IMG/VR virus record: IMGVR_UViG_3300020474_000005
Location: 12,000-75,999 of that record
DNA length: 64,000 bases
From: a virus
Strand: one strand, 5' to 3'
The position numbers and the translations under genes are program-made. Positions within the stretch are counted from its first letter, which is position 1. The number at the start of each line of letters is the position of its first letter. The notes under the pieces are model-generated. The model made no database searches. It was not told where the DNA came from and was given only the letters and a program-made list of their open reading frames with translations. Below, piece after piece: positions 24,235 through 48,575 of this stretch.

Positions 24235-25197
24235 ATGGCAAGTTTAAAATCATTACTCGGTACAAAGCAAGATGCATTCGTATCGGTTGCGGAATCTAAC
24301 CTAGAAAAAGGTCAGATTTTTACATACCATAACGGTGCAAACTACTCTAGAATATGGTGCGGATTTTGTTTCCATCCAAGCGTATCTGGAACAGCAGTAG
24401 TAGAGGCGTGGGGAGCAGGTGGCTCTGGCGCTGAGATGTGTTGTTGCGGTTTTGGTCTTCCAGGTAACTCAGGTGCCTATGTTAAGAAAACAGTTGTGAT
24501 GTCAGTCGGCGACTACATTTGTGGTTGTACTGGTATATCTTGCGGAAATTCATCAGATTTATGTTTTAGAGGTTGTTCAGAACCTACCATGTTAAGATTT
24601 TGCATAGGTGGCGCAGAGACTTGCGTGTGTGCAGAAGGTGGTAGAGGTGGAATAACTTATTGTTCAACTAATAACAGTTTTTATTGTTGCTACAGAGCAA
24701 ATGGTTTCTGTGTAACAAAAACAGACAATAACCAATGTGGAATTATTTGTAACCAATGTAACGGTGCATGGGTAGCCTGTGCATACGGTGGTGAAACAAA
24801 TAAACCAGGATTAAATTCTTGTGTATCAGCATTTGGTTGTTATCCATCATGTATTTGTATGTTTAATCACCACATTCCAACTCCAGCGGGACAAGGTTCC
24901 AAAGAGGGAAGGATGATTGTATATACAAATGACAACAGTAACGATTTTGCACAATGGTCAGGTCAAGGTCATCACCAACACAGAGCAAATTTAGGATCAG
25001 GTAGATTTCCAACAGGCGGTATACCTTGGTCATCTTGTTGGGGTTTCAGTGGTGCTTGTGGTTGTTATGAAAACGACGGTTGTGTTCCAGTGCTTCCAGT
25101 AGGAACTGGTGGTAGAGGACCTAACCCTTGTCCAGGTGTTAGAGATCACGCAATCAGAGGTGGCTTTGGAGCAGTAAGGATTAGATTTATTAGTTAA
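24235..25197 (+). CDS. Cys-rich glycine-rich-domain protein 1 (putative adhesin/fibre tip)
   Basis: About 30 Cys in 320 aa; WGAGGSGAEMCCCG, A-x-GG-x-GG and RGGFGAVRIRF. Confidence 0.6.
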   Translation: MASLKSLLGTKQDAFVSVAESNLEKGQIFTYHNGANYSRIWCGFCFHPSVSGTAVVEAWGAGGSGAEMCCCGFGLPGNSGAYVKKTVVMSVGDYICGCTGISCGNSSDLCFRGCSEPTMLRFCIGGAETCVCAEGGRGGITYCSTNNSFYCCYRANGFCVTKTDNNQCGIICNQCNGAWVACAYGGETNKPGLNSCVSAFGCYPSCICMFNHHIPTPAGQGSKEGRMIVYTNDNSNDFAQWSGQGHHQHRANLGSGRFPTGGIPWSSCWGFSGACGCYENDGCVPVLPVGTGGRGPNPCPGVRDHAIRGGFGAVRIRFIS

Positions 25198-25206
25198 GGA
25201 TTTATT

Positions 25207-26220
25207 ATGGCAAGTTTAACAACATTATTACAAACCAAATATGATTTTGCAGTAGGTAACGAGACTAACCTAGAGCAAGGAAGAATTTATCAGTACTATC
25301 CAGGCAGTGCTAGAGGTACAAACTTTAGATGTCACGTATGTTGGGTAGCACCATCGGCTGGTACAGCAACTATTGAGATATGGGGTGCTGGTGGATCAGG
25401 TGCAGAGATGTGCTGTTGTGGATTTGGTATTAACGGAAATCCAGGAGCATACAGTAAAAAAGTTTTAACAATGGCATCAGGCTGTTTCATTTGTGGAATA
25501 GTTGGTCAGTCATGTGGTAACGCAGATGACCTATGTCACAGAGGTACTTCAGAGTCAACACAAATTTGTTGGTTTGCAGGCGGTGCCGACGGTTGTATGT
25601 GTGCCCAAGGTGGTAAGGGTGGTTACTCTTACTGTTCAACAGGTAACTCAGGTTACTGTTGTTTTGTAGCAGGTGCTTTCTGTAACACACAAGGCGGAGA
25701 TTCATACTGCGGAATTATTTGTAACTTTAAAGATTCATCAAGTGAACCAACTTTCTGTGCCCAAGCATATGGCGGAGATAATAACTGCTACGGCGGATTC
25801 AGTTGTTTCTATTTTAGAGGATGTCAACCAAACTGTAACTGTAGACAAGTTCCAGTTCTTAGATTCCCACCAGGACAGATATCTACAAAAGGTGGTGAAG
25901 TACACTACACATTAGATTCTGACAATGGAAGATCACAATGGTCAGGAATGGGTGGTTGGATGAATGCCTCACACGGATTTAACCTTGCAACAAGATCACC
26001 AACACAGGGTGGTCCATACACTGCTTGTTGGACAGGTAACAGAAGTTGCGGTTGTTATCAAGCAAATGGTTGTATACCTTTCATGCCAGCAGGAATTGGT
26101 GGACAAGGTCCAAGACCATGTGATGGTGTAAGAGATCACGCACACAGAGGTGGTCATGGTATGATTAGAATTAAATTTGTAAGTACTACTAGTGATTACG
26201 ATCTAGATAGTGCACCGTAA
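25207..26220 (+). CDS. Cys-rich glycine-rich-domain protein 2
   Basis: About 29 Cys in 337 aa; same motifs. Confidence 0.6.
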   Translation: MASLTTLLQTKYDFAVGNETNLEQGRIYQYYPGSARGTNFRCHVCWVAPSAGTATIEIWGAGGSGAEMCCCGFGINGNPGAYSKKVLTMASGCFICGIVGQSCGNADDLCHRGTSESTQICWFAGGADGCMCAQGGKGGYSYCSTGNSGYCCFVAGAFCNTQGGDSYCGIICNFKDSSSEPTFCAQAYGGDNNCYGGFSCFYFRGCQPNCNCRQVPVLRFPPGQISTKGGEVHYTLDSDNGRSQWSGMGGWMNASHGFNLATRSPTQGGPYTACWTGNRSCGCYQANGCIPFMPAGIGGQGPRPCDGVRDHAHRGGHGMIRIKFVSTTSDYDLDSAP

Positions 26221-26242
26221 GGATAAGGAGTAAATATAGTAT

Positions 26243-27220
26243 ATGGCTAGTTTAAAAGGATTATTAACTAATAGAAACCCAGCAGAGATGGTTGAGGAAA
26301 ACCTAGAGACTGGATATATCTACGTATGGACTCCAGGTACTAACTACACTAACTTTTGTAATGGTGTATGTTGGACGGCTCCAGCGGCTGGTAAGGCTCA
26401 CATAGAAATATGGGGAGCAGGCGGTTCAGGTGCTAGAATGTGTTGTTGTGGTGACGGATTACCAGGCAACGCAGGTGGATATTCTTATAGAGAAATTACT
26501 GTAGAAGCAAACGACACACTAACAGGATGTACAGGTATGCCTTGTCAGGCTCACCCATTATGTCACTCAGGATGTTCTAACCCAACAGGTATTTGTTGGA
26601 TAACAGCATCTAACGGAAATGGCTGTATGTGTGCAAGAGGTGGTTACGGTGGAAAATCAATGTGTACAACAGGAAGTTCTTTATACTGTTGTTACAGAGC
26701 ACAAGGATTCTGCACTGTAAGATGTAACAATGATAACTGTGGACTAGTTTGTAACGTATGTACAGACGGTAGTACAGATTCATGGCAGTCGTGTGCTTAT
26801 GGTGGAACAATTAACTGTTGCGGACAATTCGGTTGTGTATCATTCTTTGGATGTTGCCCACACTGTAAATGTAGATTCCAGCAACACGTTCCGATTCCAG
26901 CAGGACAATTTGCTGTTAACGGTGCGTTGATTACTTTCCAGAAAGAGTCGGATGGAACTCCGATGTCTAACTGGTCAGGTAACCAAATATTCCAATACTA
27001 TGCGGCTTTGAACTCAGCATCTAAAACGCCAAGACAAGGAACTCCAGACTCACACTGTTGGAGATCAGATAGAGCGTGTGGATGTTATGAAATGCAAGGA
27101 TGTAACAACTATCTACCAGTGGGTGGTGGCGGAATTGGCCCTAACCCATGTCCTGATGTAAGAGATCACGGAATCAGAGGTGGATTCGGAGGAGTAAGAA
27201 TCAGATTTGTTGCTTCATAA
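26243..27220 (+). CDS. Cys-rich glycine-rich-domain protein 3
   Basis: About 33 Cys in 325 aa; same motifs. Confidence 0.6.
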   Translation: MASLKGLLTNRNPAEMVEENLETGYIYVWTPGTNYTNFCNGVCWTAPAAGKAHIEIWGAGGSGARMCCCGDGLPGNAGGYSYREITVEANDTLTGCTGMPCQAHPLCHSGCSNPTGICWITASNGNGCMCARGGYGGKSMCTTGSSLYCCYRAQGFCTVRCNNDNCGLVCNVCTDGSTDSWQSCAYGGTINCCGQFGCVSFFGCCPHCKCRFQQHVPIPAGQFAVNGALITFQKESDGTPMSNWSGNQIFQYYAALNSASKTPRQGTPDSHCWRSDRACGCYEMQGCNNYLPVGGGGIGPNPCPDVRDHGIRGGFGGVRIRFVAS

Positions 27221-27262
27221 TAATTGAAGTTAGATAAATAAAACTGTAAGAGGATAAAAACA

Positions 27263-27907
27263 ATGTTTACAAAAGAATTTAGTATAGCAATGCCAAATGA
27301 ACCACTAAAGAACGACTTTAGTGACAACACAACTATCACAGGAACTTACAAAGGTCCAAGATACATTAAAATCGAGTACAACAACGAATCTAAAGTTGTT
27401 GGTAACTGGATTGATGAAGGTGACACAGAGGCAGAATTTGCAGGTAACCCAGTAGCAGAAGGTTATACATCAACAACTTTAGACGCAGATGTTGATACAA
27501 AATGGGTTGCATACATAACAGGTTTTTATTCAACAGGTGACGTTGCTGACTACGAAGAAGACTTAGGCACAACAGATGGTAACGGTGACGCAGAAAAATT
27601 TACTTTTTACTGGCACGATGGTTCAGGTGTACTTGCACAGATTTACAATCAAGGCACAATGAAATTTGAAGACGGTGCTATCACAGAACCTTCAGTAAGA
27701 GTTCACACAGTATCAGAAGCAGATTTCACAGAATCAGTAAACAGCCATATTGCTAACGCAACAACAGAAGCGGCAAGAGATGTTTACTCAGATGATGAAA
27801 AAACGGCTATCAATGCTTACAAATCTACACTAGAAGGTTTAAGCACAAAATACAGTGGTAAAGATCACTGGAAAATTCCTTTCCCACAACAACCAGACTA
27901 CAAATAA
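27263..27907 (+). CDS. putative tail-fibre assembly chaperone-like protein
   Basis: Acidic; C-terminal Y...L..L...HWKIPFPQQP resembles the ends of phage tail assembly chaperones; paralog of 28362..29090. Confidence 0.45.
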   Translation: MFTKEFSIAMPNEPLKNDFSDNTTITGTYKGPRYIKIEYNNESKVVGNWIDEGDTEAEFAGNPVAEGYTSTTLDADVDTKWVAYITGFYSTGDVADYEEDLGTTDGNGDAEKFTFYWHDGSGVLAQIYNQGTMKFEDGAITEPSVRVHTVSEADFTESVNSHIANATTEAARDVYSDDEKTAINAYKSTLEGLSTKYSGKDHWKIPFPQQPDYK

Positions 27908-27916
27908 TAATTTGCC

Positions 27917-28303
27917 ATGGCAACTGTAACAAGAGTAAACGGATCAGGTCTTTCAACAGCAGGAAACGTTTTTTACCCAGGTGCATTTGCATTTAAAATT
28001 TTAGTAAAAATTGCAAACGGTACAGCAGTTGATTTAAGAGCAGAAGATGATGCCCTTGACGAAACAGTAGAAGCAATTTGCAAAGAAATTAATCCTTTAG
28101 TTTATTGTACTACAGACGACAACAGTGGGACAATGACTGTTGTATGTGATAACAGTGCAACAGCGGCGGACTTACAAGCACGTATTAGACTAATTGGTAG
28201 AGCGGAAAACTATCCAACAAGCACAGTTACAGCAGTTGGACCAAATACTATTGATACAAGCGGTACATTAGTAACTCTCGCGGCAACATTAACAGCAACG
28301 TAA
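27917..28303 (+). CDS. hypothetical probable virion protein (128 aa)
   Basis: Ala/Thr-rich with highly expressed codon pattern. Confidence 0.65.
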   Translation: MATVTRVNGSGLSTAGNVFYPGAFAFKILVKIANGTAVDLRAEDDALDETVEAICKEINPLVYCTTDDNSGTMTVVCDNSATAADLQARIRLIGRAENYPTSTVTAVGPNTIDTSGTLVTLAATLTAT

Positions 28304-28361
28304 TCCAAAAAACACCAATCATTTTTAAAAGCAAGGTTTCGTTCACAAAATAAGTACGAGT

Positions 28362-29090: not shown

Positions 29091-29135
29091 TCAGACTTAA
29101 CATACCTTTAGCAGACCAATCATTAAATAAATTAT

Positions 29136-30086: not shown

Positions 30087-30087
30087 C

Positions 30088-32893: not shown

Positions 32894-32960
32894 CCTATAT
32901 CTACGTATTCCACAACTACTGCCAATTAGGTAAATACACTATAACAAGGGATTTTCGACT

Positions 32961-33395: not shown

Positions 33396-33396
33396 T

Positions 33397-35253
33397 ATGG
33401 CAGTAGTAAAAAGACCTTTCATAAGTGAAAATGGTTTTCAAAGTACAGGATTCGCAGTTGATACGGCAGGTAACGTAACTGTCCGTACAATTACTAACAC
33501 ATATACTCCACCTGCTCCGGCAGTGGTTCCAGATTTTAATGTAGAGGAAACATCAGGTGCTTTTACATGGAAAAAAGACGGTACAGCAGTTGCAGGAAAC
33601 AATCCAACAATTACTATAGAACGTGGTAAAACATATTCTATAAATTTAACTTTAAACAGTTTAGCATTTAACATTTACAAAGCAGATACAGGTAACAGTG
33701 CTGTTCCAGGATTACTTTACAGCACAGGATTATCACACACAAACATTGTAACTGGTTCGACATTAGTTACAGGAAGTAAAAATTTCTCACAAACTTGGCA
33801 ACAAGCAACTACTGGAGCAAATAGAACTGCACAATATTTTGTGCCTGACACAACAGGAACGTCATATGCAACTAAAAAATTACCAGTTGTAATTGCTTTA
33901 CATGATTCAGGTAGCACTAGTGCAACAGGATTAGCGTCAATAAATTACATTACAAATTCAGTGTTAATTGCGCCTCAAGGTTACAATAACACATGGAACG
34001 TAGGATATCAATCTAGTAAAGCAGATGATATAGCATTGTTAGATTCAATTATTGCTGACTTGGCAAATTATGATAACGTTGATACAAGAGAAATTACAAT
34101 AATAGGTTATGGAAACGGTGCTCAGTTGGCTCTACAATATTCTAATTACAATCAATCTGCAACAATAAAAAATATAATTTGTTACAATGGTCTTCTACAC
34201 ATGGACCAATACAATTCTACTTTAGGAAAATTTTACAATTATTCTTTAAATTCTGTAGACAACGATACATCAACTGAAATTAGTTGGAGTGAACTTACAC
34301 CAATAGGACAAAGACAAGTATTAATGTTCAATGGTGAACAAGAACTTAATTTTTTATTCAACGGCGGAACTTACTTAGGTCAAAGTTTATACAGCGGTGT
34401 AGATAGTATTCATGGAATGGCTGTTGCAAACGCTTACAGTGGAACAAAAATTACATCAGCAACTTTACAACCAAATGGAAGTAATCTATACGATTACACA
34501 TCAGTTAAAATGTACTCATTTCCAACTGTGGCTAACAATTTTTCTGGTGTACAGAATGATATTAGAACATTAATTACAACACAAATTACTCCTTCAACAT
34601 ATTTGGATATTCCTACATCTACGACTTTGACAGATGCGGCGGCGCAAGGTCAACAAACAGGAAATTTAAGTTACACAGTTCCAGTAGATGCTCCGGACAG
34701 TATGTTTTATGGTGACAGTGATGGAAATCCGTTCGGAACGGTTACAGTTACACAACCATCAGTAATTGGTGTTGGTGTATTCAGCAGTATTTTAAACACA
34801 GGAAATTTATTACAGAATGGTGTTAATGCAAATATAGAAATGAAACCAACTGGAACAGGATTGATCACCATTAATCCTGAGACTACAGGTAGCATTAATA
34901 ACATGAATGTTAATACAGCACAATTAACAACATCAGGAAACGTAAATTTAACACCAAATGCAGATGTTACAATAAGTCCACAAGCAAGTGGTAACCTTAC
35001 AATTAGTCCTCTTTCAGTAGGCTCATTAGATAACGTCACAGTGGGCGGAACAACACCAAGAAATGGAACCTTTTCAAGTTTGGTTTCGAGTGCAGGAACG
35101 TTAAATAGTACTACAATAGGATTAACAACTGCGGCGCAGGCGGCATTTACATCGGCTACTGTAACAAGTGGGCCGGCAACGGCTAATAGTTTAACTAGAA
35201 AGTCGTATGTAGATAACACGGCGACAGTATTAAGTATTGCCTTAGGAGCATAG
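33397..35253 (+). CDS. fibre-type protein with inserted, degenerate alpha/beta-hydrolase (PHB depolymerase/LpqC-like) domain
   Basis: KLPVVIALHD, LIAPQG...WN, DDIALL...VD.REI.IIGYGNGA; C-terminal SIALGA. Confidence 0.6.
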   Translation: MAVVKRPFISENGFQSTGFAVDTAGNVTVRTITNTYTPPAPAVVPDFNVEETSGAFTWKKDGTAVAGNNPTITIERGKTYSINLTLNSLAFNIYKADTGNSAVPGLLYSTGLSHTNIVTGSTLVTGSKNFSQTWQQATTGANRTAQYFVPDTTGTSYATKKLPVVIALHDSGSTSATGLASINYITNSVLIAPQGYNNTWNVGYQSSKADDIALLDSIIADLANYDNVDTREITIIGYGNGAQLALQYSNYNQSATIKNIICYNGLLHMDQYNSTLGKFYNYSLNSVDNDTSTEISWSELTPIGQRQVLMFNGEQELNFLFNGGTYLGQSLYSGVDSIHGMAVANAYSGTKITSATLQPNGSNLYDYTSVKMYSFPTVANNFSGVQNDIRTLITTQITPSTYLDIPTSTTLTDAAAQGQQTGNLSYTVPVDAPDSMFYGDSDGNPFGTVTVTQPSVIGVGVFSSILNTGNLLQNGVNANIEMKPTGTGLITINPETTGSINNMNVNTAQLTTSGNVNLTPNADVTISPQASGNLTISPLSVGSLDNVTVGGTTPRNGTFSSLVSSAGTLNSTTIGLTTAAQAAFTSATVTSGPATANSLTRKSYVDNTATVLSIALGA

Positions 35254-35260
35254 AAAAAGA

Positions 35261-38200
35261 ATGGCTAAAAAACGAATAAACGACTATAAATTTATACCAG
35301 GTATACCTTCAACAGGTAATCTTTATCCTAATGCTTGGGCACAACTAAATGCCAACTTTGAATTTTTAAAAGATGAAGCAACGGCTTTTATTGCTTCAAG
35401 AGTAACAACAGACACAGCATACAATCCCTACCCAAATGCATCAGCAAGAATAGTAAACAACTTAAATTACATCAAGGCGGAAGTTGCCAAGTATGTTGAA
35501 AACCAAGTTGCAGGAAACGTGGCTCCATTTGCAGGTTACACAGGTTTATCAGCGAACATCAAAGCAGACGTTGAGAAAGTTGTTAATGCGGCATACAAAG
35601 ACACAAGATATGGTGGTAACGAAAGAATGCGAACACAATCCAACACATACTATATCGATGGTGTACTACAATTAGGAGACCAAGGTAATCCTGAAATACA
35701 ATATTTGACTTACGCAAGAACTTTGATCGACAGTTACATCTTACCAGGTGTTGCTAACTCTACAATAAACACAGAAGGAATATCACAAAACACTTCAGGT
35801 TCTAATGGAGAAGCGGCTGGTAGAACATTGATGAAGTCAAACATGGATGTAATAATTAATGCGATTGACAATGGAATACTTACTTTACCAGCAGAAGTGA
35901 TTTCAAGTTATCCATTTGCAGATTACACATATGACTCTTACCTTTGTGAAAGAGATATGGGTTACAATCTAACTGGTATATTAAAAGATTTAAGATATGG
36001 TGGAAATGAACAATCAAGATACAACGCAGGAACTTACTGGAACGGTGAAGTATCTGTTTTAACAGGAAATAGACAACCAGAAATACAAACAAAAAATGAA
36101 ATAAAAAGCATTATCAACAATTACATTTTTCCTGGTACAGCATTTTCAAGCAGACAGAGTCCTGTTGTTACACAACAAACAATTTTAGGTTCAGCAGGTG
36201 AATCTGCGGCAAGTACAAGAGTTACGAGTTTATTCGGAATAATCACAGACGTGATACAAAATGGTTTAGACAACTTACCTGCACAGGTATCAAACGGAAT
36301 ATCTAGTGTAAAAATTCCTGAAAGAGTTGAATTAGCAGAATTATTATTGATCACGAACACTACAGACAACACAGTATTATACACATTCAACGACGCGACA
36401 CAAGGTGCAACAGTAAGTTACAAAAGAGAATACGAAACAGGAACATCTAACACAACAGCATTTGTTGATCCAGATTTTCCTAAGGCATATCACGGAAATG
36501 ATGTAATCACTACAATATTTTTAAATGCTGATACATCAGCAGATGCCTCAACAGATGAAATACAAATATTTGTTGAAGATGATGAAGTAAGAACACGTCC
36601 ACATGACTTTGGAACAGATGCGATTGAAAGACTTAGAGTTGCACAACCAGAATCAATGCTTGACGCTGACTTTGAATACGGACTTCAGCCTACGAAGTGG
36701 CAAGCGATTGCAACACAAAGAGGTTATCCATCAATTTATGAAGTACCAGGTACAGACTTTGATATAGCAACTGTAACTTCTGATGCTTCTGCGGGAACAC
36801 AAGGTATTGGTTCATCTTTAATCACTGTGACAACAGTAGGTCCACACAACTTTGAAGCAGGACAACCGTTTACAATTACAGGATTTAACAACGCAGTATC
36901 AGGTTCAAGTAGAGCGGCGGGTTCATTTGTTGTAAACACTATTGTAAGTAACACACAATTTACATACTACGCAAAAGCAAAAGTTGCCGTTGCAAACCCA
37001 ACAACGATTTCTACAACTAACACACAGTTAAGAGAAGGTGACTTCTACACAGGAGCGGCGATTGGATTTCCTTCGTTCAGTGTTGCAAGTAATGGTTCTT
37101 CAGGAACTTTCACAACAACAATAAGTGCTTTAAGTGGTGCGAGTATTTTACCATACACAGGTACAACGCCACCAATTGGTGCACCTTTATCAGGAACAGG
37201 TATACAAACAGGTACACAGGTAACTGGTGCTAACGGATCCGGTGGTTCATTAGCATCTCCAAACGTTACAGGAGACTTTTTATCAGGTGTTACAGAAATT
37301 ACTGTGGCAAGTTCAGCAGGTATTGTGCAAAACTCAGTAATTGATAGAGGAGATGGTTACGCAGTTGCAATCACAAACATCGCTGGAAATAACTTAACAT
37401 TATCAGGACCTCTTACACAAAATTTAATTGGTGACATTACACAATACACAGGACTAGCAGGTGTAAATTATAACCCAGCGGGACAATTAGCAACATTTGA
37501 TATCACTAGAAATGGTGGAAACTACTCCGTTGTTATTGCGGGATCAGGTCAAGACTACACAGTAGGTGATGCGATAGTTGTAGCAGGAACAACTCTAGGT
37601 GGTTCTACTCCAGCCAATGACGCAACAGTATTAGTAGAAAGTGTAGACACAGGAGGAGAAATCCTTACAGCAACTATTTCAGGATCTGCATTCACTGGTT
37701 CAGGAAGCACAACAGGTACACCAGCAGTATTCCAAGGTGGATTAGGACAAGGTGCACAACTCAATGTAACAAAAACAAACCAATCTTACACAGTTGCATT
37801 AAATTCACCAACTTACACAGGCACAGCAGTAGGAACTTTCCCAGGAGCGGCAGGTTCAAGTGCAACATTTGATGTTGTTGCAACAGCAGGATCTTATTCT
37901 GCAAGTGTAAACGGAGCAGGTACAGGATACATTGTCAATGATGTAATTAGAATTGACGGTTCAACATTTGGTGGTACAAGTGCCAACCATGCAAACATCA
38001 GAGTAACAGCAGTAACAGGTGGTGGAGCAATTCAAACACTTTCAGTATTAGGTACAGCACCAGCACAGACAGTAACTTATAACACAGTTGCATTTACAGG
38101 TGGTAACGGTTCGTCAGCGGCATTTAACATTACGAGAACAGGTACAACTTATTCAGCGGCAATTACAAATTTAGGTTCTAACTATCAACAGAATGATATT

Positions 38201-41200
38201 TTAACTTTCGTTGGAACAAATCTAGGTGGTGCTACAACTGCCAATGATGCGGCATTAGAAGTAACAGCAGTTGATGGCAATGGTGGAATTTTAACTTTCA
38301 ACGTTACAGGTACAGCGGTTGATACAAAATCTTACACAGCAATATCAAGCGGTACAAACTTATCAGGTGTTGACGCAACATTTGATGTTGCAATTTCTGG
38401 AACATCTTATTCAGTATCAGTAAACCAAGCAGGTAGCGATTACAGTGTAGGACAAGATTTAAAAATATTAGGAACTTCTTTAGGTGGTACAACACCAGCA
38501 AACGATTTAACAATAACAGTAGCATCAATCACAGGTTCTACTGGTGCAGGCCCTATCAACACAATTTCAACATCAGGCACAGCGGCACTAGAAGGAACAA
38601 ATGGTTACAAAGTAGGTGATCGATTCTTAGTAGGCGGCGGTGACGTAGGTGGAGTGGCAACAACCAATGATGCTTATGTGGCTGTAAGTGGTGTAAACGG
38701 TACAGGTGGTATCACAGGTGTAACAATCAGTGGTACGGCAACAGATGCCAATGTAGATTATACAAGTCCAGCATACACAACATCCGCTTCGGGTACTGGT
38801 GCAGTGTTTGATATAAACAGAACAGGCACAACTTATACAGCAACATTCAGCAACAATGGTAGTTCATTTGTAGGTGCAGAAACAATAGATATTGCGGGTA
38901 CGGCATTAGGTGGAACAAGTCCAGCAAATGATTGTCAAATTACTGTTGACACAGTTTCAGCAGGTGCGGTAGCAACATTCACAGTAACTGGTACGGCTGT
39001 AAACACACAGGTTTACAACAATGTTAACAAAGCAGGTATAACAGGAACAGGTTTAAGTGTTAACGTAACACTGAACAGTGGTTCTTACAACGTTGCACTT
39101 AACAATCCAGGTGCAAACTACGCCGTTGATCAAACATTTAAAATTGCAGGAACAGATTTATTTGGTACATCACCAACAAACGATTTAACTTTTACAATCA
39201 CAGCGGTAAACAATATTCCAAGTGGTGTTGTAACAACAATAGGCAGTGTGGCAGGAACGGCAAACACAGGTACTGGTAACTCTTTAGGAGTAAGTGGTAC
39301 AAACAGAACTCCATCAGGAGTTGGTGCTCAGTTCAGTGCTACAAGATCCAACCAGACTGACTCTTCAACAGCATACACAGAAGTTACAATAACAAGTTTA
39401 GGTTCGAACTATGCAATAGGTGACAAACTTGTGATAGCAGGTACTAGTTTAGGTGGACAAACTCCGGCAAATGATATCACGTTAAGAGTTCAAAGTGTAA
39501 ACACAACTGGCGGAATATTGACACAAACACACAGCGGTACAGCAGTGGCTGGTACAGGATTAAGTGTGTATGGTTCGATATCTATATCAGAAACAATTTC
39601 ACAAAACATCGCACAGAACAGCACAATAAGTTACAGTGCGTTAGCAACTATACAGGTAGACTTTACTACTCCTCACGGACTAGTTCCAGGAAACGCATTC
39701 TTGATTGTGATACAATCAGATGACGGTGCCAATAATCACATACTTGCATCAGGTCCATTCCTAGCAACGGCAATTCCATCCTCAACAAGATTACAATATC
39801 AAGTTAGATCTCCGGGTGCAATAACAGATTCAGGTTGGCAAGGTTTTGTATATGCAAGACCAGATTCATTCTTTATACATAGACCATTTGATGGAGGTGT
39901 ACAATTAGGTACAGGTGGTCCATCACACGGTGCACAGGCGATACGTCAATCTAAAAAATACATTAGATATCAATCAGGTAAGGGTTGTATGTATACGACG
40001 GGTGCCTTGTTTGCTCCAAGTTATGACCTATTGACTGTGACAGCAGACGGATTAGCACAGGGATCAACAATCACAGTAACGACTGATGATGTTGACCACA
40101 ATTTACAGGTAGGTGCTAGAATAAGATTGATTGGTATTGCCACATCGGGTTATGATGGCACATACACTATCGCAAGTATTGTAAATGAAAGAACATTTAC
40201 AGTATTGGCAACTATCGCACTTGGCGGAACGACAGCAGAATTTACAGATCAACCACAGGTATCATTGTATCAATGGAATGGTGCAACTGTAAGATCAGGA
40301 ATATTTGATGACCAAAACGGAATTTATTGGGAATATGATGGACAAACAACAAACGCAGTACAAAGAACAGCAACAAGACAACTTGCAGGTGTAGTAACTG
40401 TTACACCTAACAGTAACACTGTATCAGGAACTGGTACAAGATTTAGAGAACAAGTTAAAGCAGGTGACAGAATAGTAATCAGAGGTATGACACACGTTAT
40501 ATCATCTGTTGCTTCTAATACATCAATGTTTGTTACTCCAGATTATAGAGGTGTCAACACTTCAACTGGTGTAAAAGTTTGTGCTGTTGTAGACAAAAAA
40601 GCAAAACAATCAGAATTTAATAGAGATAAAATGGACGGTAATAGCAAGAGCGGTTACAATTGGGACGTATCTAAGATGCAGATGATCGGGATACAATTTT
40701 CATGGTACGGGGCTGGATTTATTGACTGGATGGCAAGAGGTCAAAAGGGTGACTTTATATTTGCTCACAGAATGAGAAATTCAAACATTAACACAGAAGC
40801 ATTTATGAGAACAGGTAACCAACCTGTACGTTACGAAGTAACCAACGAAGGTCCAAACGGTAGATTAGAATTAGATATGACAACTGTACAAACAACTGTA
40901 CAATTAGTTGATGCAAGTTTCTTTCCGTCAACAGGTGGAACAATTTTCATAGACAATGAAATTATCACTTACACAGGTAAGACAGGTGACGTATTGACTG
41001 GTGCCACAAGAGCGGCAACACTTACAAACTTTAACGCAGGTGCTACAAGAAACTATACAGCCGGCGCGGCAACAACACACTTTAGAAACACAGGAGTTGT
41101 GTTAATATCTAACACAGCATCACCGATCATATCACACTGGGGATCAGCATATCTAACAGATGGTAACTTCGATGAAGATAGAGGATATCTATTCAGTTAC

Positions 41201-42271
41201 GCTTCCACAGGATTAGCACTTACAACTACAAAACAAACAGTGTTCCTATTAAGACTAGCACCGTCAGTATCCAACGCATTGACAGGTGACCTAGGAGATA
41301 GAGATCTACTTAACAGAGCCCAGTTGCTACTAGACGGTGTTGAGATTACAACTGACGTTCCAGCGGCGGGTGTAAACGGACAGTTGGTTGTACAGGGTGT
41401 ATTGAATCCACAAAACTATCCAATTGATCCAGCAGATATAGGTTGGGGTGACTTGAAAGGTCCAGCACAAGGTGGACAGCCAAGTTTTGCCCAGATTGCG
41501 GCAGGTGGTTCGGTTAACTGGAACGGTGGTGCATCGCAAACAACAGCGACAGCAAATACACAGGCACAGATGACTGCAACAGCAAACCACTGGTTCAACT
41601 TGAGTGGTAACAGAAACTATGCATACTTCCTTGAAGCACAATGGGAAGGCAAAGGTTTAAGAGTAGGTATGGCAGTATCTTCCGGACAGTTCCCTTCAGG
41701 TACAGTTGTTACACAGATTATTGACTACAACTCATACTACTTTGTAAGATTCAGTAATAGACACACAGGAATAAGTTCAAATCAAGCAGTGACATTTACA
41801 CTTGGTGGTGATCTATCCGGTACTAACTTCTTGTACATGGATCAAACAACGTGGGAGGCTTCTAACGCAGTTAGCGGTACAGAAGTTGATGTAAGTTACG
41901 CTACTTTCCCACCAGGTACAACAGTGGCATCAGTTGACTCATTAGATACATTTGGAACAACTGACTTCTACAGAGTTACGTTCACACAGACGTCGACGGG
42001 TAATATTGCGGCGGGTGATGCAATTACATTTACATTTGGACAACCACCATATGCACAACCGGGTGAAACAATCTTTTCATTCATTGGGGTACCGGGTGAA
42101 AGAGCAACATTGGCTCTTAGCGCCATTAAAGCCTTAACTAACACAACACTAGGTGGACGTGGTACGTTCCCTAATGGTCCAGACGTGTTGGCTATCAACG
42201 TATTTAGAACAGCGGGAACGGGTTCTGTTGCAGGAACAGTTACACTGCGTTGGTCAGAAGCACAGGCTTAA
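35261..42271 (+). CDS. giant virion structural protein (2336 aa) with about 8 Gly/Thr-rich repeats
   Basis: Repeat G..Y..GD.i.i.G..LGG.TPAND.T.V; also DADFEYGLQPTKW and lectin-like WYGAG segments. Confidence 0.75.
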   Translation: MAKKRINDYKFIPGIPSTGNLYPNAWAQLNANFEFLKDEATAFIASRVTTDTAYNPYPNASARIVNNLNYIKAEVAKYVENQVAGNVAPFAGYTGLSANIKADVEKVVNAAYKDTRYGGNERMRTQSNTYYIDGVLQLGDQGNPEIQYLTYARTLIDSYILPGVANSTINTEGISQNTSGSNGEAAGRTLMKSNMDVIINAIDNGILTLPAEVISSYPFADYTYDSYLCERDMGYNLTGILKDLRYGGNEQSRYNAGTYWNGEVSVLTGNRQPEIQTKNEIKSIINNYIFPGTAFSSRQSPVVTQQTILGSAGESAASTRVTSLFGIITDVIQNGLDNLPAQVSNGISSVKIPERVELAELLLITNTTDNTVLYTFNDATQGATVSYKREYETGTSNTTAFVDPDFPKAYHGNDVITTIFLNADTSADASTDEIQIFVEDDEVRTRPHDFGTDAIERLRVAQPESMLDADFEYGLQPTKWQAIATQRGYPSIYEVPGTDFDIATVTSDASAGTQGIGSSLITVTTVGPHNFEAGQPFTITGFNNAVSGSSRAAGSFVVNTIVSNTQFTYYAKAKVAVANPTTISTTNTQLREGDFYTGAAIGFPSFSVASNGSSGTFTTTISALSGASILPYTGTTPPIGAPLSGTGIQTGTQVTGANGSGGSLASPNVTGDFLSGVTEITVASSAGIVQNSVIDRGDGYAVAITNIAGNNLTLSGPLTQNLIGDITQYTGLAGVNYNPAGQLATFDITRNGGNYSVVIAGSGQDYTVGDAIVVAGTTLGGSTPANDATVLVESVDTGGEILTATISGSAFTGSGSTTGTPAVFQGGLGQGAQLNVTKTNQSYTVALNSPTYTGTAVGTFPGAAGSSATFDVVATAGSYSASVNGAGTGYIVNDVIRIDGSTFGGTSANHANIRVTAVTGGGAIQTLSVLGTAPAQTVTYNTVAFTGGNGSSAAFNITRTGTTYSAAITNLGSNYQQNDILTFVGTNLGGATTANDAALEVTAVDGNGGILTFNVTGTAVDTKSYTAISSGTNLSGVDATFDVAISGTSYSVSVNQAGSDYSVGQDLKILGTSLGGTTPANDLTITVASITGSTGAGPINTISTSGTAALEGTNGYKVGDRFLVGGGDVGGVATTNDAYVAVSGVNGTGGITGVTISGTATDANVDYTSPAYTTSASGTGAVFDINRTGTTYTATFSNNGSSFVGAETIDIAGTALGGTSPANDCQITVDTVSAGAVATFTVTGTAVNTQVYNNVNKAGITGTGLSVNVTLNSGSYNVALNNPGANYAVDQTFKIAGTDLFGTSPTNDLTFTITAVNNIPSGVVTTIGSVAGTANTGTGNSLGVSGTNRTPSGVGAQFSATRSNQTDSSTAYTEVTITSLGSNYAIGDKLVIAGTSLGGQTPANDITLRVQSVNTTGGILTQTHSGTAVAGTGLSVYGSISISETISQNIAQNSTISYSALATIQVDFTTPHGLVPGNAFLIVIQSDDGANNHILASGPFLATAIPSSTRLQYQVRSPGAITDSGWQGFVYARPDSFFIHRPFDGGVQLGTGGPSHGAQAIRQSKKYIRYQSGKGCMYTTGALFAPSYDLLTVTADGLAQGSTITVTTDDVDHNLQVGARIRLIGIATSGYDGTYTIASIVNERTFTVLATIALGGTTAEFTDQPQVSLYQWNGATVRSGIFDDQNGIYWEYDGQTTNAVQRTATRQLAGVVTVTPNSNTVSGTGTRFREQVKAGDRIVIRGMTHVISSVASNTSMFVTPDYRGVNTSTGVKVCAVVDKKAKQSEFNRDKMDGNSKSGYNWDVSKMQMIGIQFSWYGAGFIDWMARGQKGDFIFAHRMRNSNINTEAFMRTGNQPVRYEVTNEGPNGRLELDMTTVQTTVQLVDASFFPSTGGTIFIDNEIITYTGKTGDVLTGATRAATLTNFNAGATRNYTAGAATTHFRNTGVVLISNTASPIISHWGSAYLTDGNFDEDRGYLFSYASTGLALTTTKQTVFLLRLAPSVSNALTGDLGDRDLLNRAQLLLDGVEITTDVPAAGVNGQLVVQGVLNPQNYPIDPADIGWGDLKGPAQGGQPSFAQIAAGGSVNWNGGASQTTATANTQAQMTATANHWFNLSGNRNYAYFLEAQWEGKGLRVGMAVSSGQFPSGTVVTQIIDYNSYYFVRFSNRHTGISSNQAVTFTLGGDLSGTNFLYMDQTTWEASNAVSGTEVDVSYATFPPGTTVASVDSLDTFGTTDFYRVTFTQTSTGNIAAGDAITFTFGQPPYAQPGETIFSFIGVPGERATLALSAIKALTNTTLGGRGTFPNGPDVLAINVFRTAGTGSVAGTVTLRWSEAQA

Positions 42272-42661
42272 TTATTTTTCTTCAGTAACGGTAGTTTGTT
42301 GATTATCGCCTTTAATTATGCGATAATTGTCATTGGGATCATCAGCAGTACTAACTTCAGTAATACTTCCATTGTCAGTAAGACATTGTACTTGATGAGG
42401 TAGGAACGGCGGATTACGCCATGTGTCGCCTTCATTTAATTCTTTGGTATATAATGTTGCATCTTTGGTATCTATCCAACTTAATAAAAATTTACCGTTG
42501 TTTATAAACCATGATTCATCTTTTACAGCGTGATAGTGCATTGAAAATTTTGCACCTTTTCTATTGAAAACCATTATTTTTCCACAATATAAATCATTGG
42601 AAGCAAAGATTAATTCATATCCCCAACCTTTGTCTATTTTTCCTTCTTTATTAATTGACAT
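42272..42661 (-). CDS. cupin, sugar isomerase-like
   Basis: KGWGYE...YCGK...SMHYH..KDESW...G...H..C...EVS cupin metal motif. Confidence 0.75.
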   Translation of the reverse strand: MSINKEGKIDKGWGYELIFASNDLYCGKIMVFNRKGAKFSMHYHAVKDESWFINNGKFLLSWIDTKDATLYTKELNEGDTWRNPPFLPHQVQCLTDNGSITEVSTADDPNDNYRIIKGDNQQTTVTEEK

Positions 42662-43469
42662 TTAAGAATTCCTCCACTGTTCTAAATTTGTGTTCTATAT
42701 TTTTATTTAATTCTGTTAAATCTGCACTGGTGTAGGTCTGATATTGACCTTGTAATTTTGCAGGCATGGGTATTGTTTCTATTTGTGCGTCATATTTTTT
42801 GGCAACAAGTTCTGCAACTTTTTGAAAAGATATTGGTGCTCCTGTGCCAACATTGAATATACCAGAAACATCAGCATTAAGCATTTTTCCATGTACCTCA
42901 CAGACATCATCTACACTAACAAAATCACGTAGATACTTGTCACTGTTTTCAAACAATTTTATTTTGCCAGTCTTTGCTTGATTGGCAAATTTAGTTACAG
43001 GAGATGCTTGATCGCCTTTCTTTTCTTCGTTGTGTCCATACACATTAAAATATCTAAATCCTTGTACAAGCACTTTAAATTCTCCCATTACAGAATTAAC
43101 AAATCTATCAAATAGGTATTTGCTCCAAGCATAAGCATTTAATGGATACACGTCACCATCTTCCTTGAAATTTCCTGTGTTCCCATACACACTTGCGGAA
43201 CTGGCATACTGAAAATTTGTACCCATGTTGTCGCACATTTCCAAAAGTTTCATGCTGTATTCTAAATTCGTTTTCATGATTTTATCAACGTCTCTTTCAG
43301 TTGTGCTTGTGATTGCTCCTAGATGTATGATCCAATCATACAAAGACGGATCCGGAAAATGATTATAATCTTCCCATCTAAAGCCGATGACTTCATGCCC
43401 TTGTTTTGTAAGATGCATTCCTAAATGATCTCCGATAAATCCTTTGTAACCTGTTAAGCAAATTTTCAT
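42651..43469 (-). CDS. hldD: ADP-L-glycero-D-manno-heptose 6-epimerase
   Basis: GYKGFIG, HLGAITSTT, YASSASVYG, PLNAYAWSK, RYFNVYG, RDFVSVDD and YQTYTSAD. Confidence 0.9.
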   Translation of the reverse strand: MKICLTGYKGFIGDHLGMHLTKQGHEVIGFRWEDYNHFPDPSLYDWIIHLGAITSTTERDVDKIMKTNLEYSMKLLEMCDNMGTNFQYASSASVYGNTGNFKEDGDVYPLNAYAWSKYLFDRFVNSVMGEFKVLVQGFRYFNVYGHNEEKKGDQASPVTKFANQAKTGKIKLFENSDKYLRDFVSVDDVCEVHGKMLNADVSGIFNVGTGAPISFQKVAELVAKKYDAQIETIPMPAKLQGQYQTYTSADLTELNKNIEHKFRTVEEFLNVN

Positions 43470-44071
43470 TTAACATTCTCCCACAATTTTATAATTTTAT
43501 CAGCGCCTTCTGGTCTTATGTCTTTAGTAAGTTCATCGTGCCAGTTGGTCAAGTAGTTCATGTTTATGTTAATCCTGCTTCTTTTATCTGTACAAGTCGT
43601 GCCTGTGTGTTCCATGTAACTTGGAAATACCACCATTGAATTTTCTACACTAGGAACTTTTGTGCCATCTTTAAATTCAGTGTAACCATCTGTTGTGTTT
43701 ACATAATAAATTGCGGTGTAACTTAATGCCACTCTTGTATCTGCATGGAATCCATGCTTAATAATTTTTTCTGTTCTTGGTATGTTGTTTGCTTTTACTC
43801 TAATAAAAGTATTTGCTTTCAATACATTAAAGATTGGATAAAGCATTACCCAATTACTGTGTTCAGTGGTCACATCGGAAACTCCATGAAAGTTGTGTTG
43901 AAACTGTAATTGTTCTTTTTCCTCAGTCATTTTTTGTGCATCTTCAACAACGTGTTCCGAGTAATACCAAGGAAAATGATCACTTAACATTTTGTCCGTA
44001 AGTATCTTAAATTCTTCTTTTTGAATTACATTGGTGCAAATTAATTTGCCTTTTTCAATTCTTGTTTCCAT
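43466..44071 (-). CDS. 2OG-Fe(II) oxygenase, phage type
   Basis: HAD...TAIYYVN..DGYTEF...VFPS...HTG......RININ (HxD...H...R). Confidence 0.8.
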   Translation of the reverse strand: METRIEKGKLICTNVIQKEEFKILTDKMLSDHFPWYYSEHVVEDAQKMTEEKEQLQFQHNFHGVSDVTTEHSNWVMLYPIFNVLKANTFIRVKANNIPRTEKIIKHGFHADTRVALSYTAIYYVNTTDGYTEFKDGTKVPSVENSMVVFPSYMEHTGTTCTDKRSRININMNYLTNWHDELTKDIRPEGADKIIKLWENVK

Positions 44072-45308
44072 TAACCTTGTCCACTATGTTTGATGTTGAA
44101 AAACCTTCTACTGTTGGAAATATTATCACTTCGGCAAGGTCATTTCCGACCACTGTGTCGAACGTGTAATCTCCACCTTTTACAATCACGTTTGGTGTAT
44201 GTTCTTTTAATGCATCTATGGGAGTATCTTGTTCAAATACAACCACTTGGTCCACCCAGGGCAGTTGTAATAGTTGTTGTTCTCTTGCCCAAGCATTATT
44301 GAATGGTCTATCGTCACCCTTTAATCTTTTTACACTTGCATCAGAATTAATTCCAACAATTAATCTATCTCCTTGCTGTTTCGCAAATTTTAATAATTCT
44401 AAATGTCCTTTATGCAGAATATCAAAAACGCCATTTGTCCATACCACTGTGTCTTCAATATCTGATCTATCTATTATAGATACTCCTCTTTTTTGCACAA
44501 TTTTTTCTGCACCTTTAACTGCTAATTCACAACAAGCAATCATATTGTTGGTTTTAAAATAATGTGCAATTATGGCAAGTACAGAATCACCTGCACCACT
44601 TACATCTGCAACTTCAACAGTATTGCTTTTAATATGATCATAAGAATCTTTAGTGACTACGTGTATACCGTTCGCTCCATCAGTTACAACAAGCCATGTC
44701 CATACATTATCTTCACACATTTTTTTAGCAGTTTCAATATTAAAATTACCAAACCATGCTTCATATTCTTTCATATTTGGTTTGACTAAAAATGCACCAA
44801 CGTATCTACTAAATCCTTGTTTTGGATCCACATATACATTCTTACATTTTTCTAAAATTTTCGTTATTGTATCTTTTTTGATTACTCCTTTGTTGTAATC
44901 ACTTACAATTACCACATCGGTTTCATTTAAATTTTCAAGCAGTATTTCAACAGGAGTATCTGCCTTATATTTCTCCTCCTTGTCCACACGAATAAGGTGT
45001 TGTCCGTTCTGTCCTATGATTCTAGTTTTGGTAGTTGTCATTTCACCATCTTGGCACAGATGCGACTTTACTCCATTTTGCAGTAAAATTTCTTGGATTT
45101 TGTGTCCGGGGATGTCGTTGCCCACGGCACCATAAAGCCACGTGTCTGTGCCCAAGTTTGATAGGTTTAACGCTAGGTTTCCAGCGCCTCCAACATTGAA
45201 ATCTTTGTTTGTTTCTTTAACTACAAGCACCGGTGCTTCTGGACTCACTTTTTGGCAATCGCCCTGTGTCCACATATCAAGCATTACATCACCGATGATT
45301 TTAATCAT
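44055..45308 (-). CDS. hldE: bifunctional heptose-7-phosphate kinase / heptose-1-phosphate adenylyltransferase
   Basis: IGDVMLD, SPEAPV, GGAGN, SDYNKG, VDPK, KPN..E and DVSGAGD, followed by NGVFDILHKGH, NSDASVKRLKG..RP and KGGDY. Confidence 0.93.
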   Translation of the reverse strand: MIKIIGDVMLDMWTQGDCQKVSPEAPVLVVKETNKDFNVGGAGNLALNLSNLGTDTWLYGAVGNDIPGHKIQEILLQNGVKSHLCQDGEMTTTKTRIIGQNGQHLIRVDKEEKYKADTPVEILLENLNETDVVIVSDYNKGVIKKDTITKILEKCKNVYVDPKQGFSRYVGAFLVKPNMKEYEAWFGNFNIETAKKMCEDNVWTWLVVTDGANGIHVVTKDSYDHIKSNTVEVADVSGAGDSVLAIIAHYFKTNNMIACCELAVKGAEKIVQKRGVSIIDRSDIEDTVVWTNGVFDILHKGHLELLKFAKQQGDRLIVGINSDASVKRLKGDDRPFNNAWAREQQLLQLPWVDQVVVFEQDTPIDALKEHTPNVIVKGGDYTFDTVVGNDLAEVIIFPTVEGFSTSNIVDKVNGNKN

Positions 45309-45736
45309 TACATTAATTTTAACATTTTGAACACAGTATCTAATTTGACCTGGTTCATTTTATTTTGAAGAGTCTTACGTAAACCTTGGTGTAATGGCTT
45401 GGGCCAATTACCAAAACTTACCCACGCATATCCATCGTGTTCTGTGTTTAATTTTGGAATAAATTCTTTCTCTACAACACACAAGAAAGTGTGATATAAA
45501 AAATTTTCATCATTGCTTATAAAAGTTTCCATAGGTATTTTCTTTTTTATTTCTACTTCACCTACTTCCTCTTTAATCTCTCTATGTAGTCCTTCCCATA
45601 AATTTTCATCTACGGTTGTGCCACCTACTAATCCCCATACGTGATTTTGTTTGCTCTGCACTCTATGAAGTACTAAAAACCTTTGGGTATCCAAAGTATA
45701 GAAGAGTGCACCGCACCCTATAATTTTACTGCTCAT
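45308..45736 (-). CDS. NUDIX hydrolase
   Basis: Nudix box G-x5-E-x7-REIKEEVG. Confidence 0.85.
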   Translation of the reverse strand: MSSKIIGCGALFYTLDTQRFLVLHRVQSKQNHVWGLVGGTTVDENLWEGLHREIKEEVGEVEIKKKIPMETFISNDENFLYHTFLCVVEKEFIPKLNTEHDGYAWVSFGNWPKPLHQGLRKTLQNKMNQVKLDTVFKMLKLM

Positions 45737-47210: not shown

Positions 47211-47362
47211 TATTTTTTCTCTTTATTCTTTTCATTAATCTTGTTACCAACAGGTTCGTAATAAGTTCTTACTTTACCCATTAATTTTTTTGAAACTTTT
47301 TTAAGTCCAACTGCTTTTTCTGTACCTGGTATAGGTATTCCCCAAAGTTCTCTTAATCTCAT
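47210..47362 (-). CDS. small basic protein (50 aa), not in the ORF track
   Basis: MRLRELWGIPIPGTEKAVGLKKVSKKLMGKVRTYYEPVGNKINEKNKEKK; TAATG overlaps at both ends. Confidence 0.7.
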   Translation of the reverse strand: MRLRELWGIPIPGTEKAVGLKKVSKKLMGKVRTYYEPVGNKINEKNKEKK

Positions 47363-48519: not shown

Positions 48520-48521
48520 AG

Positions 48522-48561
48522 ACATATATTTATCGGATGGTGGTGAGTGATAAATATATGT
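48522..48561. promoter_or_regulatory. divergent late promoter pair forming a perfect 13-bp inverted repeat
   Basis: ACATATATTTATC-N14-GATAAATATATGT. Confidence 0.75.
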
Positions 48562-48575
48562 AAGGAACGTATTAA

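Follow-up and report, generated by a model that had tools for sequence, protein, structure and literature searches.

Gene content of the fibre cassette

The window analysed here is a stretch of 64,000 nucleotides (positions 12,000 to 75,999) of the 76 kb IMG/VR viral record IMGVR_UViG_3300020474_000005, whose completeness is estimated at 22%. Embedded in its tail-fibre region is a cassette in which two GT9-like glycosyltransferases (GT9A and GT9B) and a carbamoyltransferase (CT) lie close to three cysteine- and glycine-rich proteins, and the relation between these enzymes and their neighbours is the subject of this work. On the + strand, two huge fibre genes and two small fibre-associated genes are followed by the three Cys/Gly-rich paralogues, by proteins of 214, 128 and 242 aa, by GT9A, CT and GT9B, and finally by a 144-aa protein and fibres of 618 and 2336 aa (Table 1). 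A second run of genes, including those for the ADP-heptose enzymes HldE and HldD, lies on the minus strand. The initial annotation had described a GT9, carbamoyltransferase, GT9 block at 29136-32893, directly after three Cys-rich and two chaperone-like genes, together with hldE, hldD, cupin, 2-oxoglutarate (2OG) oxygenase and NUDIX genes at 42272-45736. All of these are open reading frames (ORFs) at those coordinates, the order of the first block holds, and the identities in the second are confirmed by domain, PDB and motif matches.

The three Cys/Gly-rich genes (24235-27220) encode paralogues of about 45-51% identity with some 30 cysteines each, i.e., about 10% cysteine, and share an invariant CCC. 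Twelve residues, C67-C68-C69 included, are invariant across the two gene architectures described below. A Pfam search with the window trio gave no match, PF21722 (Gly_rich_2) included, whereas the proteins in the equivalent positions of the related locus L081 pass Gly_rich_2 with 26.6 and 25.5 bits (cut-off 24.3). Pairwise BLAST between a window Cys-rich protein and the Gly_rich_2 protein of the relative was not significant; the link required a joint hidden Markov model (HMM), which detects the window trio as well as the Gly_rich_2 equivalents of the relatives. Consistently, the protein Atlas places paralogue 3 beside viral Gly_rich_2 clusters, and the AlphaFold model of this paralogue, built on 28 sequences with moderate confidence (pLDDT 69.5), finds its best fold matches in the cyanophage Pam3 fibre, Bxb1 tail-tip proteins and the glycine-rich domain of ALK/LTK. 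The trio resembles the Gly_rich_2 fibre and tail-tip domains of Pam3 (7ypx) and Bxb1 (9d93) in its fold, its WGxGGxG motif and a C-terminal G-rich strand, and differs from them in its cysteine content, the CCC motif, its tandem arrangement and its linkage to the GT9-like and CT genes. The Cys-rich proteins are most likely fibre-tip receptor-binding modules, a role in which we infer that they are part of the virion.

GT9A and GT9B are paralogues (47% identity) that both match phrog_8954 at E<=1e-125. Their resemblance to known GT9 enzymes is weak at the level of sequence: against Pfam PF01075 (cut-off 22), the scores are 20.5 bits (GT9A) and 12.3 bits (GT9B), a six-frame search reaches 22.1 bits with neighbouring matches included, and a PDB sequence search with either protein gave nothing meaningful. 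It is clearer in the predicted structure. The AlphaFold model (30 sequences, pLDDT 84.5) has the GT-B fold with two Rossmann domains, and Foldseek matches it to 3tov (E 6e-11), TibC, WaaF (1psw) and WaaC (2gt1) with TM-scores of 0.5-0.62, TibC ranking third to tenth. On the donor side, hhalign places D235-S-V-G-Q-H240 of GT9B on D261-T-G-L-S-H266 of WaaC; all 33 phage sequences compared have D235, S236, G238 and H240, and the motif is intact in both paralogues. The phage enzymes thus share with WaaC, WaaF and WaaQ (GT9, PF01075) the GT-B fold, with 3tov, 1psw and 2gt1 as top matches, the D-[ST]-x-x-x-H motif and adjoining ADP-heptose genes, but they differ in a Pfam score at or below the cut-off, in one catalytic position and in their location in a fibre operon linked to fibre-tip proteins.

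This catalytic position lies on the acceptor side. The phage sequence G-R-x4-[IL]-P-A-[IL] aligns without gaps with G-D-x4-L-P-A-L of WaaC, where strand 1 meets helix 1 in the model, so that Arg15 takes the place of the catalytic Asp13. G12 and D13 are invariant in WaaC, WaaF, WaaQ and WaaU of E. coli, and Arg15 is invariant in the 33 phage sequences, cyanophage orthologues included. The equivalence rests on this ungapped motif match and on modelled secondary structure, because the profile-profile alignment of the phage family with the four E. coli GT9 enzymes covers the C-terminal domain only (60% probability). Given the invariant arginine, the pair is best read as GT9-derived enzymes whose acceptor-side chemistry is altered. 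Conservation is as high in the acceptor-side N-domain as in the donor domain, with 22 invariant residues common to cyanophage orthologues; such equal conservation between jumbo phages and cyanophages would suit a conserved acceptor supplied by the phage itself. More than 4,800 members of the GT9-like family are known from metagenomes, and some homologues have been named LPS (lipopolysaccharide) heptosyltransferase by JGI.

The nearest functional precedent is provided by the TibC/AAH enzymes (BAHT), which are related to GT9, transfer ADP-heptose onto an adhesin in the cytoplasm and are encoded beside their substrate (PMC4358343). These enzymes carry a four-Cys iron finger, an N-terminal beta-barrel and a beta-hairpin thumb and assemble into a dodecameric ring (PMC4358343). 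The phage enzymes (316-326 aa) are about 80 residues shorter: the family has a single invariant cysteine (C234) and hence no iron finger, and neither the N-terminal beta-barrel nor the beta-hairpin thumb is present in the model, which opens with a Rossmann strand (5-9) and a helix (13-29). The candidate substrates differ too, being glycine-rich fibre domains, whereas TibC and AAH act on beta-helical autotransporters. A complex prediction of GT9B with Cys-rich paralogue 3 scored 0.30 where the mark is 0.32, which is evidence neither way.

The CT matches Carbam_trans_C (E 7e-58, 195 bits, cut-off 27) and Carbam_trans_N (E 4e-24, 86 bits, cut-off 24), finds 7xb6, GdmN and TobZ in the PDB (E 6e-54 to 1e-40) and keeps the GPRALGNRS segment, all of which identify it unambiguously as a predicted O-carbamoyltransferase of the NodU/TobZ type. 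It has the two-domain architecture of NodU, NolO, CmcH and TobZ, but its score lies far under the NodU equivalog cut-off. A phage CT of the same Pfam family carbamoylates 5-hydroxymethylcytosine (5hmC); such DNA-modifying CTs co-occur with genes of the thymidylate-synthase type, while CTs on unmodified contigs adjoin glycosyltransferases (PMC8670742). The CT of the window is flanked by the GT9-like genes, and the thymidylate-synthase-family partner of the 5hmC enzyme is absent from its relatives: no match to thymidylate synthase/dCMP-hydroxymethylase (PF00303) was found in five related contigs (G001-G005), one of them 268 kb long and about 75% complete.

Around these genes, the 214-aa chaperone-like protein falls into one HMM family with proteins of relatives that carry Phage_tail_APC. 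Between it and its 242-aa paralogue lies a 128-aa ORF (window 27917-28303), which is found in 1 of the 80 related loci (L012, 94%) and, for this reason, is regarded as a lineage-specific insertion. The two small fibre-associated genes (106 and 110 aa) precede the cassette in 61 of the 80.

Table 1. Features of the fibre cassette and of the minus-strand run, with window coordinates
Feature	Position	Strand	Basis
Two small fibre-associated genes, 106 and 110 aa	23486..24186	+	both match tail-fibre/tail PHROGs
Cys/Gly-rich fibre-tip-like paralogue 1, 320 aa	24235..25197	+	phrog_4205; WGAGGSG...CCC motif; family HMM
Cys/Gly-rich paralogue 2, 337 aa	25207..26220	+	paralogy; family HMM
Cys/Gly-rich paralogue 3, 325 aa	26243..27220	+	AlphaFold fold matches; Atlas link to Gly_rich_2
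ATAAATA late-promoter-like motif heading the chaperone/GT9/CT run	27234..27240	+	motif scan
Chaperone-like protein, 214 aa	27263..27907	+	phrog_9740; HMM family
Second chaperone-like paralogue, 242 aa	28362..29090	+	33% identity to the 214-aa protein; family HMM
TAAATA (TTAAATA), weak late-motif variant	29124..29129	+	12 nt before the GT9A start
GT9-like glycosyltransferase A (GT9A), 316 aa	29136..30086	+	weak Pfam GT9; phrog_8954; paralogue of GT9B
NodU/TobZ-type O-carbamoyltransferase (CT), 610 aa	30088..31920	+	Pfam; PDB; 59% identity to S-SSM7/Sf-FS3 CTs
GT9-like glycosyltransferase B (GT9B), 326 aa	31913..32893	+	GT-B fold nearest GT9 structures; donor motif; Arg15
Beta-sandwich-like protein, 144 aa	32961..33395	+	weak Cadherin-like match; in 75/80 related loci
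Two large fibre proteins, 618 and 2336 aa, between both enzyme blocks	33397..42271	+	ORFs; PHROG; relatives
Metal-binding cupin, 129 aa	42272..42661	-	metal ligands kept
HldD-like ADP-heptose 6-epimerase, 272 aa	42651..43469	-	PDB 1eq2, E 4e-49; TIGR02197; motifs
2OG-Fe(II) oxygenase, 201 aa	43466..44071	-	phrog_274 (E 3e-42), phrog_81; HxD...H...R motifs
Fused HldE, heptose-7-P kinase and heptose-1-P adenylyltransferase, 417 aa	44055..45308	-	Pfam; NCBIfam
NUDIX hydrolase, 142 aa	45308..45736	-	complete NUDIX box
gp15-like tail sheath stabiliser and gp14-like neck protein, first genes of the minus-strand run	45753..48582	-	

Linkage of the enzymes to the fibre-tip proteins

Co-occurrence was examined in both directions. 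The forward test took the best 80 IMG/VR loci found with the GT9-like profile, among which a CT was present in 76, the 144-aa protein in 75 and a large fibre in 74. With family HMMs, Cys-rich genes were detected in 68 and chaperone-like genes in 72 of these loci, the others being cut by contig ends; where the flank is complete, there are always exactly three Cys-rich copies. The reverse test scanned DNA for the motif WGxGGxG..CCC and returned 80 loci, 68 of them with true members of the Cys-rich family. A GT9-like gene lies within the fetched piece in 30 loci and elsewhere on the contig in 30 of the 37 remaining records, and in all five exceptions examined the contig breaks off right at the Cys-rich genes. 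Complete genomes agree with this pattern: the Kyanoviridae Sf-FS3, P-SSM2 and S-SSM7 hold Cys-rich genes (3, 2 and 3, respectively) and one adjacent GT9-like gene, while P-TIM68 and S-SM2 have neither, though both carry heptose genes. A tblastn search of 50,697 records found Cys-rich matches solely in phages that bear a GT9-like gene, in what is an insensitive search yielding 7-9 records. This bidirectional co-occurrence, with no clean exception, supports a functional link between the enzymes (GT9-like and CT) and the fibre-tip proteins.

Two architectures occur among the relatives. One is the GT9-CT-GT9 order of the window. In the other, a GT9-like gene is followed by one or two proteins with an FGCSYT motif and then by CT, and the Cys-rich proteins, two of which pass Pfam Gly_rich_2, alternate with Phage_tail_APC chaperones. 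The FGCSYT proteins are paralogues of about 280-300 aa with the N-terminal motif RLFAFGCSYT (L081:10995-12796 and L024:10987-11817) and have no Pfam match. Their motif resembles block I of SGNH/GDSL enzymes by eye, and they may be an alternative tailoring enzyme that replaces the second GT9-like gene.

The initial annotation had joined the GT9 pair, NodU, hldE/hldD and the Cys-rich genes in a single system and proposed their co-occurrence as a check. The GT9-like, CT and Cys-rich genes do behave as one unit, but hldE and hldD assort independently of GT9-like and CT. Indeed, three large relatives of the window carry GT9-like and CT genes with no HldE/HldD on the contig, while in P-TIM68 and S-SM2 the kinase, nucleotidyltransferase, GmhA, cupin and epimerase genes belong to other glycan islands with different glycosyltransferases. 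These islands (L095, P-TIM68 160-173 kb; L096, S-SM2 143-161 kb) also hold transketolase-like, alcohol-dehydrogenase, GT11 and capsule-type genes, with hli genes or tRNAs close by, and bear no relation to the fibre region. Because co-occurrence is bidirectional and the heptose genes are separate, the stable unit consists of the Cys-rich trio, the chaperone(s), a GT9-like gene and CT, with nucleotide-sugar supply as an optional addition.

An orthologous cassette is present in cultured cyanophages. In P-SSM2, S-SSM7 and Sf-FS3, it lies between the tail fibres and gp13-15, in the order tail fibre, two or three Cys-rich paralogues, chaperone-like protein, 2OG oxygenase (in some), GT9-like gene, CT and heptose genes, the latter comprising a nucleotidyltransferase, a kinase, GmhA (short), a cupin, an epimerase and a 2OG oxygenase. 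The GT9-like proteins, annotated as 'hypothetical', are 42-54% identical to those of the window and the CTs 48-60%; the Cys-rich proteins contain 25-36 cysteines and the same WGAGG.G...CCC motif. S-CAM1 has a single Cys-rich match about 1.4 kb upstream of its GT9-like gene, and S-CAM3 is listed with the same gene clusters. The window differs from these cyanophages in belonging to a jumbo myovirus, in its fused HldE, in the absence of GmhA, in the duplication of the GT9-like gene and in the heptose genes, which are split off behind gp15. The function of the cyanophage 'LPS genes' has been considered uncertain, and a 2010 comparison asked whether they are functional or 'stuffer DNA' (PMC3037559); in marine T4-like phages, a hypervariable 'host recognition cluster' is thought to alter the host O-chain (PMC7029224). 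Published work left the GT9-like and Cys-rich genes as hypothetical.

Heptose genes, promoters and phage lineage

The minus-strand run consists of gp14-like, gp15, NUDIX, HldE, 2OG oxygenase, HldD-like and cupin genes, whose ends abut or overlap. The initial annotation saw the sugar genes as tightly coupled downstream of the gp14/gp15-like genes; they do abut these and share their orientation, but on the minus strand only, converging with the fibre genes. HldE combines PfkB and CTP_transf_like domains (Pfam E 3e-31 and E 7e-19) and has HldE as its best family (NF008454, E 6e-98), the score of 328 bits being below the equivalog cut-off of 521. Likewise, the best family of the HldD-like protein is HldD, with 233 bits on TIGR02197 against a cut-off of 274.6; its GxxGxxG and YxxxK motifs are present, and its N-terminal part is about 25 residues shorter than that of E. 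coli HldD. The place of NUDIX in the sugar module is uncertain, because the gene is fixed beside gp15 in relatives.

The cupin keeps its metal-binding His/Glu residues. It stands beside heptose genes in every context seen (P-SSM2, S-SSM7, Sf-FS3, P-TIM68, G001 and the window), and it has a weak D-lyxose-isomerase-like match; the jumbo phages are without the GmhA isomerase. Speculatively, it might be a cupin-type sugar-phosphate isomerase. An RmlC-type epimerase/reductase pair of the cupin and the short-chain dehydrogenase/reductase (SDR), as in Campylobacter heptose tailoring, was considered and rejected, since the SDR is clearly HldD-like and the cupin retains its metal ligands. No SIS_2 match indicative of GmhA was found in G000, G001 and G005, and no phosphatase (GmhB) was identified; without GmhA, the jumbo phages presumably depend on a host that makes heptose. 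As for the 2OG oxygenase, BLAST between the window protein and the 2OG proteins of the cyanophage cassettes was not significant. The 'DNA endonuclease V'/DenV label of phrog_274 appears to be an inherited annotation error, because the 'denV' protein of this type in S-SSM7 (L093:16613-17167; T4-GC 100) scores as 2OG-FeII_Oxy_3 and the window member has the HxD...H...R motifs.

The timing of expression can be approached through promoter motifs. T4's TATAAATA is absent from the whole window. The motif ATAAATA occurs there in 16 copies, about 14 of which sit 12-115 nt upstream of a start on the same strand, mostly in intergenic positions. GT9A itself is preceded only by TTAAATA; the initial annotation had taken this TAAATA as the late promoter of the GT9/CT block, and the weak variant is indeed present, but the real motif appears to be ATAAATA, a perfect copy of which, at 27234, heads the chaperone/GT9/CT run. 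On the minus strand, the run that begins with gp14 and ends with the cupin has a copy at its head (48527-48533). With such motifs at both gene runs, late co-expression with the fibre and neck genes is a reasonable inference, and the late expression proposed initially is plausible on this motif basis. Between the divergent gp14-like (-) and gp13-like (+) genes, ATAAATA is found on both strands, 17 nt apart (48527-48556), in what looks like a divergent pair of late promoters; the true start of the gp14-like gene is probably further in, because its listed TTG start (48582) lies upstream of its own promoter motif. Scans of the window for sigma-70 promoters and terminators gave chance-level results.

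The large terminase (window 60211-61797) shares about 52% identity with the terminases of PA5oct-type jumbo myoviruses and does not group with those of cyanomyoviruses; its nearest relatives belong to jumbo phages of Pseudomonas (PA5oct type) and of Sinorhizobium/Agrobacterium. Some related contigs are as long as 268-364 kb, and no psbA was found in those of the jumbo phages (up to 268 kb of sequence). Because the terminase is PA5oct-like and the large relatives have no psbA, the phage is assigned, from its sequence, to the uncultured marine jumbo myoviruses and is not a cyanophage. HldE homologues provided no usable taxon names for inferring the host. The cassette is common to Kyanoviridae, with identities of 50-60%, although the terminase groups with PA5oct-type jumbo phages, which suggests that it has been exchanged between distant marine phage lineages. 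Megablast of both enzyme blocks against the 50,697 phage records gave no match. DNA near-identical to window 27000-46999 is present in marine metagenomes of at least seven studies; two of the DNA runs bear a coded organism label in place of 'metagenome', perhaps a hint at the host. Sequences almost the same as parts of the GT9/CT genes and the HldD/2OG junction also turn up in seawater metatranscriptome contigs of three studies, for which DNA carry-over is possible; metatranscriptome bins without cover are uninformative.

Candidate acceptors and meaning of the cassette

The reading that we tentatively favour, as a real possibility that stops short of being probable, is a late modification of the fibre-tip proteins, or of a neighbouring fibre protein, with heptose that is perhaps carbamoylated. 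In such a process, the Cys-rich trio would be made late, together with the chaperone-like partner(s) proper to each lineage, one or two GT9-like enzymes and CT. HldE and HldD, with GmhA and GmhB from the host and possibly the cupin, would raise the ADP-heptose pool at this stage. The GT9-like enzymes would then move heptose from ADP-heptose onto a Cys-rich or other fibre protein in the cytoplasm, before assembly, and CT would carbamoylate a hydroxyl of the sugar using carbamoyl phosphate and ATP. We infer that heptose is the sugar donated, that a virion protein accepts it, in which order the steps run and what benefit results (stability, shielding or receptor specificity). This modification is commended by the linkage in both directions, by the late morphogenetic setting, by the precedent of TibC/AAH and by the conserved acceptor domain. 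Freeman et al. (2023) reportedly described phage-encoded virion glycosylation in mycobacteriophages. A candidate virion heptosylation/carbamoylation system had been proposed in the initial annotation; this is partly supported, in that the predicted linkage exists for the GT9-like, CT and Cys-rich genes but not for hldE/hldD.

Several points weigh against a modification of the virion. On the modelled structure, the GT9-like enzymes are not of the TibC/AAH type, having neither the iron-finger cysteines nor the N-terminal beta-barrel, and Arg15 stands invariantly at the position of Asp13; with this aspartate replaced and the TibC features absent, glycosyl transfer to a hydroxyl is not assured. 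Synteny through kinship inflates the co-occurrence counts, which correspond to some two or three independent lineages (the two jumbo architectures and the Kyanoviridae). The acceptor is deduced from gene context, late timing from a sequence motif only, and linkage to receptor-binding genes would be equally expected for the masking of a receptor. Published readings, moreover, favour modification of the host LPS (PMC3037559, PMC7029224).

Such remodelling of the host envelope seems somewhat unlikely here. The GT9-like enzymes and CT would put heptose or carbamoyl-heptose on a host surface glycan, be it the LPS core or another envelope polymer, that serves as the receptor of the fibre tip, and so block superinfection or the adsorption of progeny to debris. 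GT9 is the family of LPS heptosyltransferases, a name that JGI has given to some homologues; the genes of cyanophages and pelagiphages are viewed in the literature as modifying LPS or the O-chain (PMC3037559, PMC7029224); the heptose genes of P-TIM68 and S-SM2 lie in polysaccharide-type islands with other glycosyltransferases; and receptor specificity would itself yield linkage to receptor-binding genes. Yet the motifs on both runs suggest late expression from within morphogenesis operons, and new LPS made late would probably mask slowly. The acceptor domain is kept between jumbo phages without psbA and cyanophages, so that masking would need the same acceptor in different hosts, and the catalytic aspartate of the LPS enzymes is replaced. 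The cyanophages also bring a full heptose pathway, GmhA included, which suggests hosts that have no ADP-heptose and hence no heptose core. The replaced aspartate bears as well on an unlikely alternative, in which the acceptor is another component tied to fibre assembly: the 144-, 618- or 2336-aa protein, one of the chaperone-like proteins, or a molecule, small or lipid-linked, that would come to serve the Cys-rich domain as ligand or cofactor. The invariant arginine could mean a thiol, carboxylate or phosphate acceptor, or a non-catalytic role of one paralogue; the 144-aa protein (75/80) and the large fibres (74/80) are nearly as frequent as CT, and the replacement of the second GT9-like gene by FGCSYT proteins in relatives suggests that the tailoring chemistry varies. 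Against this stand the Cys-rich family, which is the tightest partner and the only one tested in both directions, and the donor-binding motif, which is intact in both GT9-like paralogues. It is, lastly, very improbable that CT and a GT-B enzyme decorate hydroxymethylated bases of the phage DNA. A phage CT that carbamoylates 5hmC is known (PMC8670742), and a phage cluster of kinase, cytidylyltransferase and GT-B enzyme, which can lie near structural genes, yields heptosyl-5hmC (bioRxiv 10.1101/2023.12.21.572611). However, no thymidylate-synthase-family gene was found in the five related contigs (up to 268 kb), the fold is nearest to GT9 and not T4 beta-GT-like, the promoter context is late, and the linkage to fibre-tip genes would go unexplained.

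A bolder form of the virion-modification reading, which we consider doubtful, is that the cassette is the first phage protein-heptosylation system, in which a GT9-derived enzyme with arginine in place of aspartate would act on Cys-rich adhesins, possibly on a thiol, before CT caps the sugar. The genes themselves were known; what is new is that the GT9-like family is recognised, that a catalytic residue is altered in it, and that it is obligately paired with Cys-rich fibre-tip proteins. Part of the 'LPS gene' set, i.e., the GT9-like gene and CT, is locked to a fibre-tip family and not to the sugar-nucleotide genes, which turns the question into one that is directly testable on cultured phages, as the presence of heptose or carbamoyl-heptose on virion proteins. 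On the bolder reading, the 'LPS genes' of cyanophages such as P-SSM2 and S-SSM7 would serve in virion maturation and tune host recognition or the stability of the particle. If such sugars are confirmed on the virion, the cassette would represent a new chemistry for phage receptor-binding proteins. With more than 4,800 metagenome members of the GT9-like family, it would then also be relevant to the prediction of host range in abundant marine phages.

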